Source: a virus
Taxonomy: Duplodnaviria > Heunggongvirae > Uroviricota > Caudoviricetes
IMG/VR virus record: IMGVR_UViG_2675903366_000018
DNA: 15,292 nt
Strand: one strand, 5' to 3'
Shown here: in pieces, positions 326-15,292 of the stretch
Layout of the letters: each line of letters opens with the position of its first letter
Numbering within the stretch: position 1 is the stretch's first letter
Notes under the pieces: model-generated
What the model was told of the DNA's origin: nothing
The model's database searches: none
Seen by the model: only the letters and a program-made list of their open reading frames with translations
Translations under genes and position numbers: made by a program

Positions 326-455
326 CAGCGCAACGCATTTTTTAATTTCGCGGGTATAAAAATTTGACGGGGCGGATAGTTCCATAAGTAATGGATTGCA
401 GGAATTTCGATCCCCCTCCTGAATGCAATTTTTCGTATATATATATACAAAACAG

Positions 456-613
456 TGCGGGTTATGCGGGTTAGCGGGTTATCTTCGCGTGCTAAGTATT
501 TTTTATTCTTTAATATCAATACGTTAAAAAATGACGTGTTTAAATATTAGCCAAAACGTAACCCGCAAGACATTCAAAATAACCCGCAACCCCCCCCCAA
601 ATAACCCGCAAAC
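456..613. repeat. Origin-like iteron cluster: 3 tandem GCGGGTTAT-type repeats (456-483), ~75 bp AT-rich spacer, 3 inverted ATAACCCGCAA repeats at ~21-bp spacing (558-611)
   Basis: Same iteron sequence and same direct / AT-rich / inverted layout as the cluster at 9596-9722 downstream of the replication gene. Includes a (TA)6 run at 436-448 nearby and a C9 homopolymer at 590-598. Confidence 0.6.
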
Positions 614-9106: not shown

Positions 9107-9532
9107 TTAAAACGGTATCCCGTCCCCGTACGGATCATCGTGCTGGCCTGTCTGTTGTTTTGCCCTGTTCAGTGCGTCAGTGGCCTGGCCCTGTTGACCT
9201 TTTTTGCCGCCCGGTCGCGCCGTTCGCGCACTGATTACGCTGTCTGCAATAACCTGCCAGCCCTGCCGCGTTTCGCCGTTCTGCCCTGTCCACTGGCTTA
9301 CCTGCATGTTACCCGCCACGCTCACCAGTTCGCCTTTGCGGTGTTTTGCCAGTGCGTCGGCCTGTCTGCCAAACGCCAGGACGGATAACCACATCGTCGC
9401 CGTTCCGTCATCTGCCTGGCTGCATGGAAGGGGAACCGCCATACTCACCATCGCCATTTGTGTCCCCTTGCTGGTGGTCTTTAACTGCGGGTCAGCCACC
9501 AGCCGACCGTAAGCCGCTATCTGTGCTGTCAT
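9107..9532 (-). CDS. ssb: Single-stranded DNA-binding protein
   Basis: 141 aa; Gly/Gln-rich linker and acidic C-terminal tail ...DDPYGDGIPF, the SSB protein-interaction tip; ATG at 9530-9532 with GGAGAG upstream. Confidence 0.75.
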   Translation of the reverse strand: MTAQIAAYGRLVADPQLKTTSKGTQMAMVSMAVPLPCSQADDGTATMWLSVLAFGRQADALAKHRKGELVSVAGNMQVSQWTGQNGETRQGWQVIADSVISARTARPGGKKGQQGQATDALNRAKQQTGQHDDPYGDGIPF

Positions 9533-9595
9533 GCTTTCTGCTCTCCGGTTTTAACGTTGATAGTTACGCTTGTTTAAACCCTTACTGTGAAATTC

Positions 9596-9722
9596 TGCGG
9601 GTTATAATCGCACTTTTGCGGGTTATAACTGCCGTTTTGCGGGTTACGTGCGGGTTATTGATTTCCTTTTTATTCATACAGTTAATGCACTTATACACAG
9701 GATAACCCGCATAACCCGCAAC
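9596..9722. repeat. Putative replication origin: 4 direct TGCGGGTTAT iterons (starts 9596, 9617, 9638, 9649), 40-bp AT-rich spacer, 2 inverted ATAACCCGC copies (9702, 9711)
   Basis: Read directly from sequence; 21-bp spacing of the first three iterons; ends 20 bp before the replication gene's stop codon (9743-9745), the usual place for the ori in PICI/SaPI-type satellites. Confidence 0.6.
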
Positions 9723-9742
9723 TTTTCACCTCACACAGGGGG

Positions 9743-11875
9743 TTAATCTTCTGCCTCAGGCTGGAACATCAGCACGTAAAAAACATGCTGCTTCCCCCCA
9801 ATTTTGCCGAGCGCCTTTTTCTTGTAACGGCGATCGTTACCCGCTTCCAGCATTCCGGCAGCACTCAACGCGCGGGCAAAGTGAGACGGATTAAATCCCT
9901 GTGCTATCTCACCCTCAAACACATGCGGGAACGTGTAAAAACGGAACTCGTCATCTTCGTTTCTGATACTCCCCTTTCTGTATCCGGCAAGCTCTTTAAT
10001 CGGTAAATCACGCTCGTCAGAGTTGGGCCAAGGAAGGTATCTGCTGAATCCGAACGACGCTAAAAAAGCCTCTGCCTGTTCAACCATCTGTTTAAACTCC
10101 CTGTTCCCCGTGCCGAACTCCTTCACCCAGGCATTAAAATTATGCTGAATGGCATCGCGGCATTCCTGCTCATCCCAGCCAGTAACATGACCGGAAAGTA
10201 CAAGCGCGGCCTCCAGTATGGCGAATCGTTCCCCCACACGGTGAACCTGTTCGCCGTAGCTCTCCGGTATCAGGTTGCGCCACCGCTCGCGACATGCCCT
10301 TACCGCGTCCTTTGCCTCCTGCTGGTGTTCTGCCAGCCATTTAACCCACTCACGACCTGCCGCCCCGTGATTTTCTGTCCAGGCATCTTTTAACGCGTCT
10401 GCGTGCGCCTTTCCGGTGCTGTATTCGTGAAACTGCGAGGCCTTTTCCATCGGCACGTTAAGCAGACGGACAAGCTGCCCCGCTTTAATTTTTATCCCTT
10501 CCGTTTTGAGGAATGTTTCAACGTCCATTTCTCCGGTGCTGATTGCCACCGTGCGCCAGTGTTTTATCTCCCTGTTGCCGCCGTCCTTCGCCCCCTGTAA
10601 TTTCCCCGAACCGTTAAACAGCGTATAGGCTGACGTGGACACCTCCCGCGCGTTTCCGGCCTGGCCTATTTCATCCAGGGGTAACAGCCCGTCATTATGT
10701 GCTTCGGCCTCGTTGGCGATACCTAACGCCGTTCCGTACCAGGTCAGCCGTTGCGCGTCCGGCTCTCCCCATAAACTGGATGCGATGTTCTGTGTGGTGG
10801 TTTTCCCTGCTGATGACTGTTCGAAAAGATGTACCCCGAAGCCGTCAGCACCCACCAGCCCGATTAATGGTGCTGATAACGATACCGCCACACCCAGCAT
10901 CATGGACGGATTACCACCAGCCAACCGCGCAACGGTATCGCGCCAGCCCTCCGCCGTTCCTGCCTCGGAATAACCATTAACAGCGGCAGTTTTTCCGGTA
11001 AACAGGACTGGCTTTTCGCAATCACCAATGACCGAACCGTCCGGCATGATGTACGCGCCAAAATGCCAGCCCGTTGTTGTGCTTAACTGCCATTCCTCAT
11101 GGTTTCCGCTTAACTGCATCCAGTCAGCCAGGATAGCCCTGTATTTACCGTTGGTTGTCACATTCAGTCCGTGGTCTTTCAGCAGCCGCCAGCCGTCACG
11201 GTCGCCAATGCCCCCACACGGGATCGCCATTGTGATGACTTCATGGTTTGCTGGTTTTTTCCAGCGCATCACGCGGTAATGCTCTTTGCCGATTGTCCCC
11301 GTTCCCAGTAGTTCAAGCGGGGAACATAACCACGTCTCAGGCCGGATAATTTCGCCTGACTGCTTATCCACTTTTGGCGTTACCCAGAAAACACCATCGG
11401 CACGGCTTTCAACGCGGGGCTTTAATTCATCATCACCCGGGCTTGTGGTGGTTTTTTTCTTTACCGGAAGCTTAATTACCAGATCTGCAGAAAGATTCTG
11501 ACGCTCAACGTTCAGATAGCGCCGCCAGTTCTCACATTTCTGACCGTGCATTCCTTCAGGGTAAAAATTCGCATCCTGAATATCTGCCGCCGCCAGCTTC
11601 TGACCGATCTTTTTGGTCTCCACTAAATCCAGTTCTCCGGCCTGGTACAGCCTTACGCGTTTTTTCCCATCCGGAACAATTTTCAGCGCATCAAGTTCGG
11701 CAAGCTGATTTGGCCCAAGCCACACAGGCGGCACATCATCGCCAGATGCGGGGCCGTCCTGCTCCTGCCACTGTTTTGCATGTGCCCACGCATCACTACC
11801 CGCGAAAATAATTACCTCTGTGTCTTTGTGTTTTATTCCGCGTGGTTGTTTTTTTACGTTCGGTGCCAGTTTCAT
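9743..11875 (-). CDS. Replication initiator, primase/helicase-type (Pri-Rep-like), with central P-loop NTPase
   Basis: 710 aa; Walker A GVHLFEQSSAGKTTT and Walker B GLLPLDEIG in the central region; resembles DUF927/primase-associated replication proteins of satellites; ATG at 11873-11875 overlaps the upstream ORF's stop (ATGA). Confidence 0.75.
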   Translation of the reverse strand: MKLAPNVKKQPRGIKHKDTEVIIFAGSDAWAHAKQWQEQDGPASGDDVPPVWLGPNQLAELDALKIVPDGKKRVRLYQAGELDLVETKKIGQKLAAADIQDANFYPEGMHGQKCENWRRYLNVERQNLSADLVIKLPVKKKTTTSPGDDELKPRVESRADGVFWVTPKVDKQSGEIIRPETWLCSPLELLGTGTIGKEHYRVMRWKKPANHEVITMAIPCGGIGDRDGWRLLKDHGLNVTTNGKYRAILADWMQLSGNHEEWQLSTTTGWHFGAYIMPDGSVIGDCEKPVLFTGKTAAVNGYSEAGTAEGWRDTVARLAGGNPSMMLGVAVSLSAPLIGLVGADGFGVHLFEQSSAGKTTTQNIASSLWGEPDAQRLTWYGTALGIANEAEAHNDGLLPLDEIGQAGNAREVSTSAYTLFNGSGKLQGAKDGGNREIKHWRTVAISTGEMDVETFLKTEGIKIKAGQLVRLLNVPMEKASQFHEYSTGKAHADALKDAWTENHGAAGREWVKWLAEHQQEAKDAVRACRERWRNLIPESYGEQVHRVGERFAILEAALVLSGHVTGWDEQECRDAIQHNFNAWVKEFGTGNREFKQMVEQAEAFLASFGFSRYLPWPNSDERDLPIKELAGYRKGSIRNEDDEFRFYTFPHVFEGEIAQGFNPSHFARALSAAGMLEAGNDRRYKKKALGKIGGKQHVFYVLMFQPEAED

Positions 11876-12159
11876 TTCTTACCCCCTGCGACCAGCATTT
11901 CACGGATTTTGCGGATATAGCTTGCTGCACGTTTCTGATTTACGGCTTTACGATGGCCCACCAGCGTGAAATCACGCCGGAACTGATAAACAGGCATCAC
12001 GCAGTCATATTCGTAGCCATCACGGCGGTAAGTGATGCGCCGTTCTGCCACGCCTTTAATCGTTACCATGCCGCCATATTTATCGCGGTAAATATCGCCG
12101 TTCATAAATTCAGGACGAGCGGGGCCGCTGGCGGTAAAGCCAGAATTTTTATTTTTCAT
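11872..12159 (-). CDS. Hypothetical protein (95 aa), translationally coupled to the replication gene
   Basis: ATG at 12157-12159; stop overlaps the pri-rep start; basic, non-repetitive composition. Confidence 0.5.
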   Translation of the reverse strand: MKNKNSGFTASGPARPEFMNGDIYRDKYGGMVTIKGVAERRITYRRDGYEYDCVMPVYQFRRDFTLVGHRKAVNQKRAASYIRKIREMLVAGGKK

Positions 12160-12164
12160 GGTTT

Positions 12165-12392
12165 TTATTCCGCGTTTATTTTTTTATCGTGAATTTCGAT
12201 CGCTTTATTTAATTCGACGATTACCGTATCGAGTAATGAAATAAACGCACCAGCAAGATTAGATTCACGCTCATCTTCCGGCGCATCACTTAAACCATCA
12301 AGCCAGATAAGAAATATTTGCCTCAAACATTCACTGTTAGTCAGTGCGTTTTCTGCATGGCTCATTGATTTAAAATAACGGTCATCATGCAT
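12165..12392 (-). CDS. Hypothetical acidic protein (75 aa)
   Basis: ATG at 12390-12392 preceded by AGGGGG; overlaps the upstream gene's stop by 8 nt (ATGCATGA). Confidence 0.45.
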   Translation of the reverse strand: MHDDRYFKSMSHAENALTNSECLRQIFLIWLDGLSDAPEDERESNLAGAFISLLDTVIVELNKAIEIHDKKINAE

Positions 12393-12588
12393 GGCGCACC
12401 CCCTGACGAATACGGGCAGTAAATACCATCACGCAGCCATCAGGAGATTGCTGGCGAGCTTCCTGTTCGCTGGTGGCCTCGATGGTAATCACGCGCGGTT
12501 GTGTCGTGCTCAGAGCGATAAAACGCCAGATGTATTTATTCAGGTTGTGCGAGTCCCGCCCTTGCGGGTGTGTGGTATGATTTCTCAT
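12385..12588 (-). CDS. Small protein (67 aa), possibly Icd-like (host cell-division inhibitor family) - tentative
   Basis: Start taken at ATG 12586-12588 (GAGG 5 nt upstream); the 97-aa ORF-track version starts at TTG and runs through the operator-like inverted repeat. C-terminal region (QQSPDGCVMVFTARIRQGVRHA) resembles Icd-like proteins of P4-type elements, from memory only. Confidence 0.35.
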   Translation of the reverse strand: MRNHTTHPQGRDSHNLNKYIWRFIALSTTQPRVITIEATSEQEARQQSPDGCVMVFTARIRQGVRHA

Positions 12589-12686
12589 AGCTGCCTCGAT
12601 ACTCTCGTTATCGTTGGTGGTTAGACGCCCCGTATGTGTTTCCGGCACTGCGGGGCGTTGCTCTTTGTATTTCAACAATCCTTTCG

Positions 12687-12766
12687 GTGTGTTTCATGTT
12701 ATGAGCGCATGAAACACACGTCAAGGCTTTTTGTATTTCTTTTTTTGTGTATACTGAAACACACCG
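12687..12766. promoter_or_regulatory. Divergent control region: perfect 12-bp inverted repeat GTGTGTTTCATG-N9-CATGAAACACAC (12687-12719), third half-site TGAAACACACCG (12755-12766) overlapping a -10-like TATACT (12750-12755)
   Basis: Read directly from sequence; lies between the minus-strand small-gene operon and the plus-strand gene starting at 12786 (AGGAG RBS at 12773-12777). Confidence 0.45.
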
Positions 12767-12785
12767 ATGATTAGGAGTTTCAGAA

Positions 12786-13091
12786 ATGGCAACGGCTAAC
12801 AAAAACGCAAAATCACAACTGACAACTGTCAGAGTCCCACTAGATGTTATGCAAGGGATGGAATCCGTTAAGCTGGACGGCGAAAGCAATGCCGGATTTA
12901 TCGTAACCGCCATGCGCGGAGAAATAGCCCGCCGCCAAGCAGAAGGCAGCGGAGAAAATCCCCTTGTGTCGTCACTGGATGCCCTGGCTAAGGTCGAACA
13001 AATCGGCATCAAAGCAGCGGAAGAAATCGGGCAGCTTGTCACCGTTGCACGCGAAGAACTCCAGCGTCGCAAGACCAAAGAACCAGAGTAA
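12786..13091 (+). CDS. Putative DNA-binding regulator (possible ribbon-helix-helix), 101 aa
   Basis: ATG 12786 with AGGAG 8 nt upstream and promoter-like TTGTAT...TATACT; N-terminal TTVRVPLDVMQGMESV fits a beta-strand-then-helix RHH-like start. The antisense 271-aa ORF here is Ser/Cys-rich and judged spurious. Confidence 0.45.
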   Translation: MATANKNAKSQLTTVRVPLDVMQGMESVKLDGESNAGFIVTAMRGEIARRQAEGSGENPLVSSLDALAKVEQIGIKAAEEIGQLVTVAREELQRRKTKEPE

Positions 13092-13133
13092 TCACCATCA
13101 GCGCCGTGGTGTAAGGTATTACGGCGCATTGCT

Positions 13134-13322
13134 ATGCAGGACAACACAATGACCGATAAAGAATTGACCAAAACATTATCACCGGCACGGAAAAGACGGC
13201 GCAGAAAGATAGAGCATGAATCAGAAAGATTCGCGCCATGTGCTTTTGCTCTTGAGAAATTCCTTAAGGAGCACAAGAAAAAGCTATCATTGCAAACCTG
13301 GGAGCTAACCGAATCTGACTGA
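13134..13322 (+). CDS. Hypothetical small basic protein (57-62 aa; RKRRRRK motif)
   Basis: Same strand and 42 nt downstream of the preceding gene; alternative ATG at 13149 has AGGA 8 nt upstream; followed by a strong terminator. Confidence 0.35.
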   Translation: MQDNTMTDKELTKTLSPARKRRRRKIEHESERFAPCAFALEKFLKEHKKKLSLQTWELTESD

Positions 13323-13386
13323 TCACATTGCCCACCAGCCAGCAAATCGCTATGATGTTCGGGCTTATGTTTAGTGTTTTCCCATT

Positions 13387-13415
13387 GGCGACCGCCCCCG
13401 GTCGCCTTTGTTTTA
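13387..13415 (+). terminator. Rho-independent terminator closing the plus-strand two-gene module
   Basis: GGCGACCG-CCCC-CGGTCGCC (8-bp GC-rich stem) followed by TTTGTTTTA; located between the plus module and the convergent alpA 3' end. Confidence 0.55.
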
Positions 13416-13434
13416 TGTGCCATATACTCCCCCT

Positions 13435-13644
13435 TTACGCTGCCTTACCTGAATTAATGCGATCCCGGCTTTTAACCCATTCCATAACCTCGGACAGCAG
13501 CCAACCAACAGAACGACCGCCCAGATTAAGACGTGACGGAAAGCATCCTTTTTTCTCCAGTTCGTAGCGTGTAGTGCGACACACTCCAGTTAACTTACGA
13601 CATTCATCCTCACGGATTACGCGATCTTCATTTATTTCACGCAT
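13435..13644 (-). CDS. alpA: AlpA-family phage transcriptional regulator / excisionase-like HTH protein
   Basis: 69 aa from ATG 13642-13644: MREINEDRVIREDECRKLTGVCRTTRYELEKKGCFPSRLNLGGRSVGWLLSEVMEWVKSR, the AlpA-type HTH pattern. The ORF-track version starts with GTG at 13731 (98 aa) and could be the true start; the HTH position favours the shorter form. Confidence 0.75.
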   Translation of the reverse strand: MREINEDRVIREDECRKLTGVCRTTRYELEKKGCFPSRLNLGGRSVGWLLSEVMEWVKSRDRINSGKAA

Positions 13645-14053
13645 ACAAAAACCTACATAAAAATTACGTATATAAACTTTTCTCTTAGCTGTAGATATAT
13701 GAGATCGGATATTACTTAGATTCTTTTTCACCTCTTAAATTAAAAACACAACCTTGCTAAAGGCTTTGTTCGCTAAGGTTCGTAGAAGCTCGTTAGTGTT
13801 TAAAATCGTGTCACGAGTTTTTAAGCGACGCAACAAAAAATGTCGTCATTTGGCATTACGCTTGAATTATCTCATTAAAAACAAATAGATAAACCATCAG
13901 GTATTGGAACAATCAAGAAATAGCTAATAAGGGTTTAGTAGGGTGCATTTCAATTTTTTCGATGGTTGACAAATAAAAAATTAACGAACTTGACCGATAT
14001 TTAGCGTTTTATTCACGGCTGTAATCTCTTAAAGAAAAAACAGCCGTAATTTG

Positions 14054-15292
14054 TCAAGAATTTTGGGTGTAAATTCGCGGGGTCATAACAACGATTTTTT
14101 CATCATTGTTCTGGAGAAGCTCGAGACGGTCTACCCATAGATTAAGAGCATCACGTTTTGCATCAAGATAACGGGAGTGGTTATAGACTCGCTGCATCCC
14201 TGGCATCTGGTGGGCTGTAAGCTGCTCGACAATATGCGGATCCACGCCTAAATCGTTCAGCATGGTTGTAAATGTGTGCCGGATGTCATGCAACGACCAG
14301 GGGGCTTGATTAATGCGTCTGTGTGCCGTTCTTCCGTACTCTGATACGGATGATTGCCCTTTCAGTTCTCCAAGCAATAAGCCCGTGTGCCTGTTCTTCT
14401 GCACCAGCTTCGTGACGAACGGCAAAATGCTTTCCGGTATTGGCCTGAATATGGCGACCTTCGTTTTGCTGTGCTCCTTCGGTACTGTCCAGAGCATTTC
14501 TTTAAAATCCCACTCCTGCACCTCAGAGCGCCTTAGCTCAGTGGTACGGCATCCAAAAACAATCAGGAGGCGAATTAGGGCGCTGTAGTATGGCGGGAAT
14601 ATTTTGTCATCCAGGGCGCGGAGTAATTCCCCAAGCTCCTTATTTGTTAGTACGCGCTCGCTCACTTCTGCTTTTTTTCCCACATCACCGACAACCATAT
14701 CATCAAGAACGTTGCTGATTGCGTATCGTCGTTTTCGGCAGTACTTAAGCGCCTGTTTGCATACCTGTAGCAAAAATCCGGCTGATACCGGATTACGCTT
14801 AGCAAGCTGGTCAAAACAGGCCAGCCAGTGGCGTAGCTCGCATTTTTCCAGTGGCATAGCGCCAATCTGGCTAATTATGTGTTTATTGATCCGGCTTTTC
14901 AGTGATTCGTAGTCAGTGCGCTTTTCCTTTGCGTACGATTCAAGCCAGTAAGTGAGCGCTTCCTTAACCGTCACGGGGGCTAACGCATCCTGTACAGCAT
15001 GATTAAGTTCATAGCGCGGATTTTTCCCCTCAGCCAGCCAGGCGCGACACTGTGCCGCTTTTTCCCTGGCAGCTTTCAGGCTCAGATCGGGATAATTGCC
15101 CAGCCTCAGACGTTCCGGTGATATCTGCCTACCAGTTCCGGCCCTGTAAGTGAAATACCAGGTTAACAGGCCATTGATTGAATGCCTTACGCTAAGGTTG
15201 CCACCATCATTAAAAAAGGTGCTTTTTGTGGTTGGTGATCCGCTTAATTTTCGTAAAAGAGTGTCGCTAAGTCTATGAATTGCCCTGCTCAT
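14054..15292 (-). CDS. int: Tyrosine site-specific integrase (P4-like family)
   Basis: 412 aa; catalytic-domain motifs GCRTTELRR, HDIRHTF (H-x-x-R) and YNHSRY (catalytic Tyr region); ATG is the last three bases of the window, so upstream attachment site and promoter are not visible. Confidence 0.9.
   Translation of the reverse strand: MSRAIHRLSDTLLRKLSGSPTTKSTFFNDGGNLSVRHSINGLLTWYFTYRAGTGRQISPERLRLGNYPDLSLKAAREKAAQCRAWLAEGKNPRYELNHAVQDALAPVTVKEALTYWLESYAKEKRTDYESLKSRINKHIISQIGAMPLEKCELRHWLACFDQLAKRNPVSAGFLLQVCKQALKYCRKRRYAISNVLDDMVVGDVGKKAEVSERVLTNKELGELLRALDDKIFPPYYSALIRLLIVFGCRTTELRRSEVQEWDFKEMLWTVPKEHSKTKVAIFRPIPESILPFVTKLVQKNRHTGLLLGELKGQSSVSEYGRTAHRRINQAPWSLHDIRHTFTTMLNDLGVDPHIVEQLTAHQMPGMQRVYNHSRYLDAKRDALNLWVDRLELLQNNDEKIVVMTPRIYTQNS

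Follow-up and report, generated by a model that had tools for sequence, protein, structure and literature searches.

Our combined findings suggest that positions 9596-9720 of the DNA analysed here (a stretch of 15,292 nucleotides, hereafter the window) are probably the rep-proximal module, module A, of a two-module iteron origin that belongs to an island of the capsid-forming PICI (cf-PICI) type. The original prediction had placed an origin at 9596-9722, immediately downstream of the replication initiator gene. Comparison with related islands supports the origin reading, but that segment is only one of two mirror-image modules; the second (module B) is a cluster of the same iteron at 457-609 that was absent from the original prediction. 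The origin map is thereby corrected from a 127-bp unit to two modules 9 kb apart, which changes how cloning and deletion experiments should be designed: a clone of 9580-9740 alone could under-perform or fail as an origin even if the origin reading is right. The origin is of a known kind, and it is its arrangement that is split, in a layout that parallels the ori and crr of phage P4. We found no description in the searchable literature of a DUF927-type mirror-image double origin, of a split of such an origin over kilobases, or of a distal half that tracks Rep specificity, which does not amount to proof of novelty.

The island and its rep-proximal module

Judged by its sequence, the window represents a satellite island of E. 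coli of the capsid-forming PICI type. Approximately 80% of it aligns at ~93-94% nucleotide identity to E. coli clpS-cspD islands, in which an integrase, an HTH regulator, an Icd-like protein, DUF4222, DUF927 and SSB are annotated, together with late genes for a major capsid protein, HK97 protease, portal, connector, HNH, TerS (P27 family) and TerL. Pfam and PHROG assignments for the open reading frames of the window itself agree on AlpA, DUF4222, DUF927, SSB and PerC. The gene set of the island comprises int, alpA, DUF4222, rep, ssb, perC, major capsid protein, protease, portal, HNH, TerS and TerL, and its integration site lies between clpS and cspD. It thus combines an int/alpA/rep backbone with its own capsid and packaging genes, has no tail genes and measures ~15 kb; such gene content is that of a capsid-forming PICI (bioRxiv 10.1101/2022.09.08.507074). 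A 271-aa open reading frame at 12608-13423 (minus strand), between alpA and a repressor-like open reading frame, matched neither Pfam nor PHROG, and an Rfam search of the window found no RNA family.

Module A is situated between ssb (9107-9532, minus strand; Pfam SSB), whose start is 63 nt beyond it, and rep (9743-11875, minus strand), which encodes a 710-aa DUF927 initiator-helicase. Direct reading bore out the four direct iterons of the original prediction and their 21/21/11-bp spacing: copies of (T)GCGGGTTA(Y) start at 9596, 9617, 9638 and 9649 on the plus strand and together occupy 9596-9658. Three of these copies (9596-9605, 9617-9626 and 9649-9658) read TGCGGGTTAT, and the remaining one, third in order (9638-9647), is TGCGGGTTAC, with one mismatch. 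They are followed by an AT-rich block at 9659-9701, a candidate DNA-unwinding element, which is 43 bp long rather than the predicted 40, has 30% G+C versus 50.5% in the window, and ranks as the window's sixth least stable 41-mer. On its far side are two tight inverted iterons, again as predicted, on the minus strand at 9702-9711 and 9711-9720; they are spaced 9 bp apart and have one base in common. The last iteron adjoins rep, as had been claimed, although the gap between its end at 9720 and the stop codon (9743-9745) is 22 nt and not 20.

The repeat families of module A were also recovered by a repeat finder. When up to one mismatch was allowed, GCGGGTTAT was found 22 times in the window versus 3.3 expected, a number reached in none of 200 shuffles. 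The exact 8-mer GCGGGTTA is present in 12 copies, all within two clusters of ~150 bp, and this core is preceded by T in 11 of the 12 and followed by T in 9 of the 12. Across seven E. coli islands, 83% of the iteron columns of module A are invariant versus 44% of its other columns (Fisher p 3e-6).

SaPI origins are found immediately downstream of rep, and their AT region is flanked on either side by two or more iterons, the two sets pointing in opposite directions (PMC9371898). Module A begins immediately 3' of the rep open reading frame and has four and two opposed copies around its 43-bp AT block. The satellite-ori architecture that was originally recognised here, with iterons on both sides of an AT block directly 3' of rep, is therefore the published layout of SaPIs and Gram-negative PICIs (PMC9371898, PMC6092414). 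In this respect module A adds an unexceptional member to the SaPI/PICI origin class, known in E. coli PICIs from PMC6092414, and we consider it very likely that module A is an origin module.

The AT block of module A also contains a DnaA-box-like 9-mer, TTATACACA, at 9691-9699. The motif is kept in seven of seven E. coli islands, and in the island L004 a perfect TTATCCACA is found at this site although the module A spacer is otherwise unrelated; it was found neither in module B nor in relatives from other genera. Scans of module A for promoters and terminators yielded nothing.

Rep and its covariation with the iterons

The rep product consists of a variable N-terminal part of ~150 aa, an ATPase core like those of SaPI Rep and Cch, and a C-terminal domain (residues ~608-710, coded by 9746-10054) that is modelled as a winged helix. 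Its only Pfam match is DUF927 (residues 171-438, E 7e-46). Residues 220-604 align to the SaPIbov1 Rep helicase (PDB 8tch, E 2e-15), the match to the SCCmec helicase Cch (PDB 5dgk) is weaker (E 0.003), and the NCBIfam family Cch1 gives a weak, partial match of 38 bits, far under the cut-off of 700. By homology, the 710-aa protein would thus be a helicase of the Rep/Cch type (DUF927, MCM-like), and the earlier assignment of this gene as the replication initiator holds. Of the name ‘pri-rep’ under which the gene had been predicted, the Rep half agrees with the helicase core, but for the primase half the only backing found was PHROG names. No homology of Rep to the P4 alpha protein was detected (best BLASTP match E 0.068 over 51 aa), and the idea of such a relationship was rejected.

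SaPI Reps recognise iterons via a C-terminal winged helix (PMC9371898). When the C-terminal 100 aa of Rep were modelled with AlphaFold2, a winged helix of moderate confidence was obtained, closest to that of SaPIbov1 Rep at Foldseek E-values that are not significant, and we take this domain as the predicted iteron reader. The model used covers residues 608-710 and was built with a broader alignment; a model of the last 170 aa had an unusable C-terminal part (pLDDT 59.7). For the C-terminal domain, Pfam HTH_56 stayed below threshold and was hit in just 3 of the 42 relatives; searching PDB sequences with a profile of the domain gave no match.

At the other end of the protein, the N-terminal 180 aa have no Pfam family even at E 10. 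The N-terminal ~150 aa are 40-78% identical among E. coli islands with cores that are at least 94% identical, and residues 1-150 (window 11426-11875) appear as a separately exchanged module. Some relatives have longer Rep N-termini, in proteins of 824-949 aa, and one aligned fragment (P0002) scores, somewhere along its length, on the Pfam primase zinc-ribbon domain.

We compared Rep and the iterons in 16 relatives from other Enterobacterales and nine E. coli islands. Iterons were found right after rep in every relative with downstream sequence, and their sequence varies by lineage: GCGGGTTAT, GTGGGTTA, CGTGGTTCA, GTTGGTTCA, GGGACAAG or GGGATAAG. The last ~88 aa of Rep sort into the same classes as the iterons, with a mean identity of the C-terminal domain of 78% for same-iteron pairs and 44% for different-iteron pairs. 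The contrast is strongest between the window and the E. albertii island L005: residues 300-450 in the Rep core are 98.7% identical and the C-terminal domain is 31.7% identical, and the iteron is GCGGGTTAT in the window versus GGGACAAG in L005. Another exchange is seen in the island of E. coli PEC148 (L002), where a RepA-family helicase and its own AGTGGGGA iterons replace the DUF927 rep and module A (window 9565-11850). The breakpoint coincides with the outer edge of module A (window 9565), and the flanks are 98% identical to the window, which indicates that this replacement is recent. The swaps in L005 and L002, together with the covariation across lineages, indicate that Rep and the iterons beside it act together as a single specificity cassette, as is required by the prediction that the initiator binds the iteron. 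The correspondence between C-terminal domains and iterons also yields candidates, ready to use, for orthogonal Rep/ori pairs and for incompatibility groups.

The distal module and its separation from module A

Module B is found ~9 kb from module A, at the far end of the island, and its iteron is identical, with the same 8-mer in six of six copies. Three tight iterons on the plus strand (456-482; starts at 457, 466 and 474) read TGCGGGTTAT, GCGGGTTAG and GCGGGTTAT, with spacings of 9 and 8 bp. They are followed by an AT-rich block of 75 bp with 27% G+C (483-557) and by three spaced inverted iterons on the minus strand (558-611; cores 558-566, 579-587 and 601-609) with spacings of 21/22 bp. The AT block contains the least stable 41-mer of the 15.3-kb window (492-532), with a nearest-neighbour dG of -40.7 versus a window mean of -57.2 (sd 4.2). 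When read on the rep strand, module A runs from tight (F,F) through AT to spaced (R x4), and module B from spaced (F x3) through AT to tight (R x3), so the two are mirror images. Module B thus also has the SaPI/PICI layout, with three and three copies around its 75-bp AT block. In seven E. coli islands, 85% of its iteron columns are invariant versus 45% of the other columns (Fisher p 7e-7), and the iterons are intact in every split island examined while the AT spacers have diverged. A run of C at 589-599, C9 in the window and C4-C6 in relatives, forms the spacer between two of the spaced iterons of module B and moves their spacing from 21 to 22 bp or back; at the corresponding site L005, whose iterons differ, has a C7 run.

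The tight iterons of module B are abutted by a (TA)n near-palindrome at 425-455 (minus-strand core 437-453; GTTTTGTATATATATATACGAAAAATTGC on the rep strand), which occurs once in the window. Its consensus, GTTTTGT(W)TATATA(T)ACGAAAA, accompanies module B in all genera and iteron classes examined, including L005-L019 and L064-L100. The motif had no sigma-70 match, and promoter and terminator scans at the same motif in L009 yielded nothing; around module B in the window, the only hit of these scans was one terminator-like hairpin at 659-675. The motif might serve in unwinding or cruciform formation, in priming, or as a promoter element for the gene that follows in adjacent-type islands. The palindrome is at the edge of module B that faces the att junction, and it might couple replication to events at the circularised junction.

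The two modules are adjacent in the majority of relatives. They follow rep contiguously in 53 of 80 IMG/VR relatives, in most of the 16 relatives from other species and in two of the nine E. coli islands; the pattern after rep in most other-genus relatives is ++-----++---, over about 270-290 bp in all. In 15 of the 80 IMG/VR relatives, module A follows rep and module B is found 7.6-9.3 kb downstream, and the other 12 have module A alone. Nine of these 12 A-only loci have too little downstream sequence; L029, for example, is cut at module B. Two more, L051 and L056, belong to the island type of L023, where module B is 10.5 kb from module A, beyond the flank that was fetched. In the last one, L099, no module B was found within 9.8 kb downstream.

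Among the E. coli islands, the modules are contiguous in L022 (O157, EcCIEDL933-like) and L025, and split in the window, L001, L004, L023 and L024. Module B of the window shows sequence homology to the B half of the origin in the contiguous islands L025 and L022, and this homology takes in the outer flank CAATTTTTCGTATATATA. All split E. coli islands have the same A-side junction, with the start of ssb ~63 nt from module A; in the contiguous islands, module B and an open reading frame of ~83 aa are found between module A and ssb. This common junction points to a single ancestral split in the lineage of the window, followed by exchange of cargo. The ~9 kb between the modules in the window carry ssb, perC and the capsid and packaging genes. 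Capsid and packaging genes are also the cargo in L001, L004 and L024, three large unannotated genes take their place in L023, and L005 has only ssb, proQ and perC. In the Serratia island L013 the split is a separate one, with tail-like genes lying between the modules, and in L008 the modules are 170 bp apart. The possibility that the split form is a circular permutation of the adjacent form was ruled out. The tail-like proteins of L013 (Serratia sp. H1w; 12088-15271) are Dit-like, baseplate-hub-like and gpV-spike-like.

Module B stays with the island at four integration sites, namely clpS-cspD, yifB, tRNA-Gly and a prophage terL gene. Moreover, its iterons follow those of module A when Rep specificity changes. 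In L005, module B is 2.2 kb from module A and carries the lineage's own GGGACAAG-type iteron. In its rep core, in ssb and in the outer flank of module B, this island is still 89-92% identical to the window, and two patches, one comprising the C-terminal domain and module A and the other module B, are both unalignable to the window and both GGGACAAG-type. Whether these are two patches or one long tract, module B by sequence matches the specificity domain of Rep either way. The module B iteron of L013 also matches that of its own lineage, 6 kb from module A. Two observations count against a functional module B. In islands of other rep types (L003), the iterons form just one cluster, with no distal counterpart. 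Strict co-occurrence of module B and DUF927 rep was disproved by L002, which keeps an intact orphan GCGGGTTAT module B beside its non-cognate rep, indicating that module B can persist without its Rep, at least briefly. The island in the prophage terL gene is the closely related L024 (E. coli 042, NC_017626.1 2235724-2249000), and an island at this position is a helper-embedded PICI configuration (PMC10111431).

A proposed two-module origin and its alternatives

We propose that the 710-aa DUF927 protein acts as a self-loading initiator-helicase of the SaPI Rep or SCCmec Cch type, with its C-terminal winged-helix domain recognising the iteron (T)GCGGGTTA(Y). The easily melted AT block would be bracketed by Rep on the spaced copies, which lie two turns of the helix apart, and on the tight inverted ones, and there the duplex would be opened and a Rep hexamer loaded. 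If the SaPI literature applies, Rep hexamers would bind the iterons by the winged helix, melt the AT block without ATP and load themselves. Adjacent modules, as in most relatives, would form one symmetric origin of ~280 bp with two AT blocks. In the split form, each half has the anatomy that defines a SaPI origin and could load Rep alone, or else the halves could loop together; excision as a circle would leave ~9 kb between them in one direction and ~6 kb in the other. Rep would bind both modules, and module B would be a second loading site or a cis-acting partner of module A in the manner of P4 crr and ori. The sequences themselves show the anatomy, the homology of Rep, the covariation of its C-terminal domain with the iterons of both modules, and the conservation and co-mobility of module B; binding, melting, the choice of the module that fires and any requirement for module B are what we infer. 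On balance we favour, with some reserve, a module B that would be a working Rep site, needed for replication or contributing to it.

The origins of SaPIs (SaPIbov1, SaPI1 and SaPI5; PDB 8tch; PMC9371898) resemble that of the island in several ways: the helicase cores are homologous, the modelled C-terminal winged helix is most similar to that of SaPIbov1 Rep, the ori comes right after the rep stop codon, and opposed iterons flank an AT-rich block. They differ in that SaPI iterons are penta- or hexanucleotides versus 9-11-mers in the E. coli island, whose host is Gram-negative, whose two mirror modules are 9 kb apart and whose Rep has an N-terminal domain without a Pfam family. EcCICFT073 shares the island type and the gene order int, alpA, rep, ori, ssb/perC, late genes, whereas its rep allele, annotated ‘DNA primase family’, is 584 aa long and differs from the DUF927 type of the window; its pri-rep-ori is the only E. 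coli PICI origin tested so far (PMC6092414). The prototype cf-PICI EcCIEDL933, for which the O157 relative L022 was compared, has the same DUF927 rep, GCGGGTTA iterons and capsid/packaging module. L022 has the two modules side by side between rep and ssb, whereas they are split in the window. The paper on EcCIEDL933 (bioRxiv 10.1101/2022.09.08.507074) contains no description of the origin.

The split layout has its closest parallel in phage P4. In the P4 record, crr is 46 bp after the alpha gene and ori is 4.7 kb away, both with the same type-1 repeats. Experiments have established that P4 replication needs both ori and crr, with ori failing or under-performing without crr, and the alpha protein is known to loop the two together. 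Like P4, the window, also an E. coli satellite, has one repeat cluster directly downstream of the initiator gene (module A, 22 nt after rep) and a second one kilobases away (module B, at 9 kb). Unlike P4, it has an initiator unrelated in sequence to alpha, and its repeat sequences and internal layouts differ. By analogy, then, the window may at most work like P4; it is not a member of the P4 family. A second parallel concerns the contiguous form. SV40 large T antigen and papillomavirus E1 operate double-hexamer viral origins, and their origins share with the contiguous form the convergent central sites and the two meltable flanks. The central convergent array with its flanking AT blocks would suit two hexamers, and the analogy suggests that two helicase hexamers may be loaded there in opposite orientations. 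There is no homology between these systems, and the analogy breaks once the halves are 9 kb apart.

Module A alone could be a complete origin, with module B serving instead as a Rep-titrating or handcuffing site, a fork barrier, or a Rep operator at the end of the island. Titration or handcuffing would then provide copy-number or incompatibility control, and an operator would give Rep control over transcription leaving the island. A single module already satisfies the published definition of a SaPI origin (PMC9371898), and L002 tolerates a non-cognate module B. Furthermore, module B abuts a motif that is kept across iteron classes and, in adjacent-type islands, is just upstream of the ribosome-binding site of the next gene, which fits an operator or promoter. 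However, no sigma-70-like promoter was detected at the conserved (TA)n motif. In addition, module B has full origin anatomy, with spaced and tight inverted iterons around the most easily melted AT block of the window, and practically all relatives with sufficient sequence have it, whether beside module A or at a distance. We regard a self-sufficient module A as unlikely.

It is far less probable still that module B is a decaying relic, for instance of recombination between tandem or co-resident islands, with no present function. A relic would be in keeping with the patchwork nature of the distal non-coding end (290-1580), with its internal repeats: a 37-nt repeat at 289-325/1000-1036 and a weaker one with approximately the same offset, at 493-526 and 1209-1242, that takes in part of the AT block of module B. 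It would also fit the lack of ~620 nt of the distal non-coding region in L004 and the orphan module B of L002. Yet a relic would not track Rep, and in L005 and L013 the module B iteron matches the Rep C-terminal domain. Moreover, all six iterons are intact in the window and in every split island examined, between spacers that have diverged, and the split form is stable over four integration sites and with different cargo. Finally, we found no terminator between rep and ssb, so the module A region is probably transcribed, but it is scarcely credible that its repeats are no origin and represent an array of transcriptional operators or a chance or structural repetition between the two genes, given that their position, iteron/AT layout and Rep homology match experimentally defined SaPI/PICI origins (PMC9371898, PMC6092414), that the iteron is enriched far beyond chance (22 versus 3.3 expected), and that it covaries with the Rep C-terminal domain and is exchanged with Rep as one cassette.

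If the two-module reading is right, the DUF927 Rep family uses a symmetric double origin, the halves of which can be separated by kilobases yet are maintained, and both track the specificity domain of Rep. If, in addition, both modules work as one origin, the accessory and capsid genes of the satellite sit inside its own origin. More tentatively, both modules may be complete half-origins and the junction between them a permissive or preferred site for cargo, in which case this PICI lineage would be an independently evolved counterpart of P4 ori/crr with an MCM-like, SaPI-type initiator. The islands would offer a tractable system for studying a self-loading hexameric helicase with two loading sites and P4-like looping between distant sites, as well as the exchange of replication specificity modules (C-terminal domain plus iterons) between satellites.

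The distal end of the island carries repeats of other kinds. Short repeats at 172-231, ACTACACC(A/G)TTAACTACACCG and CCACGAACAA, are also found in L001 (16069-16128), L004 (804-863 and 15645-15673) and L022 (2789 and 18017). Repeats of this type are present at both ends of related islands, independent of the chromosomal integration site. From their sequence they look like arm-type sites of the integrase, which would place the end of the island to the left of ~172. An island end ~110 bp from module B was considered and dropped, since the arm-type repeats put the end further out. The 37-nt direct repeat (289-325 and 1000-1036) is centred on the palindrome CTTTTCCACCAATGGTGGAAAAG and has a degenerate third copy at 899-917. 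Repeats of the CTTTTCCACCAATGGTGGAAAAG type have five matches in the window versus 0.01 expected, all of them in the non-coding distal end of the island, and may represent a protein-binding site or a trace of past recombination.
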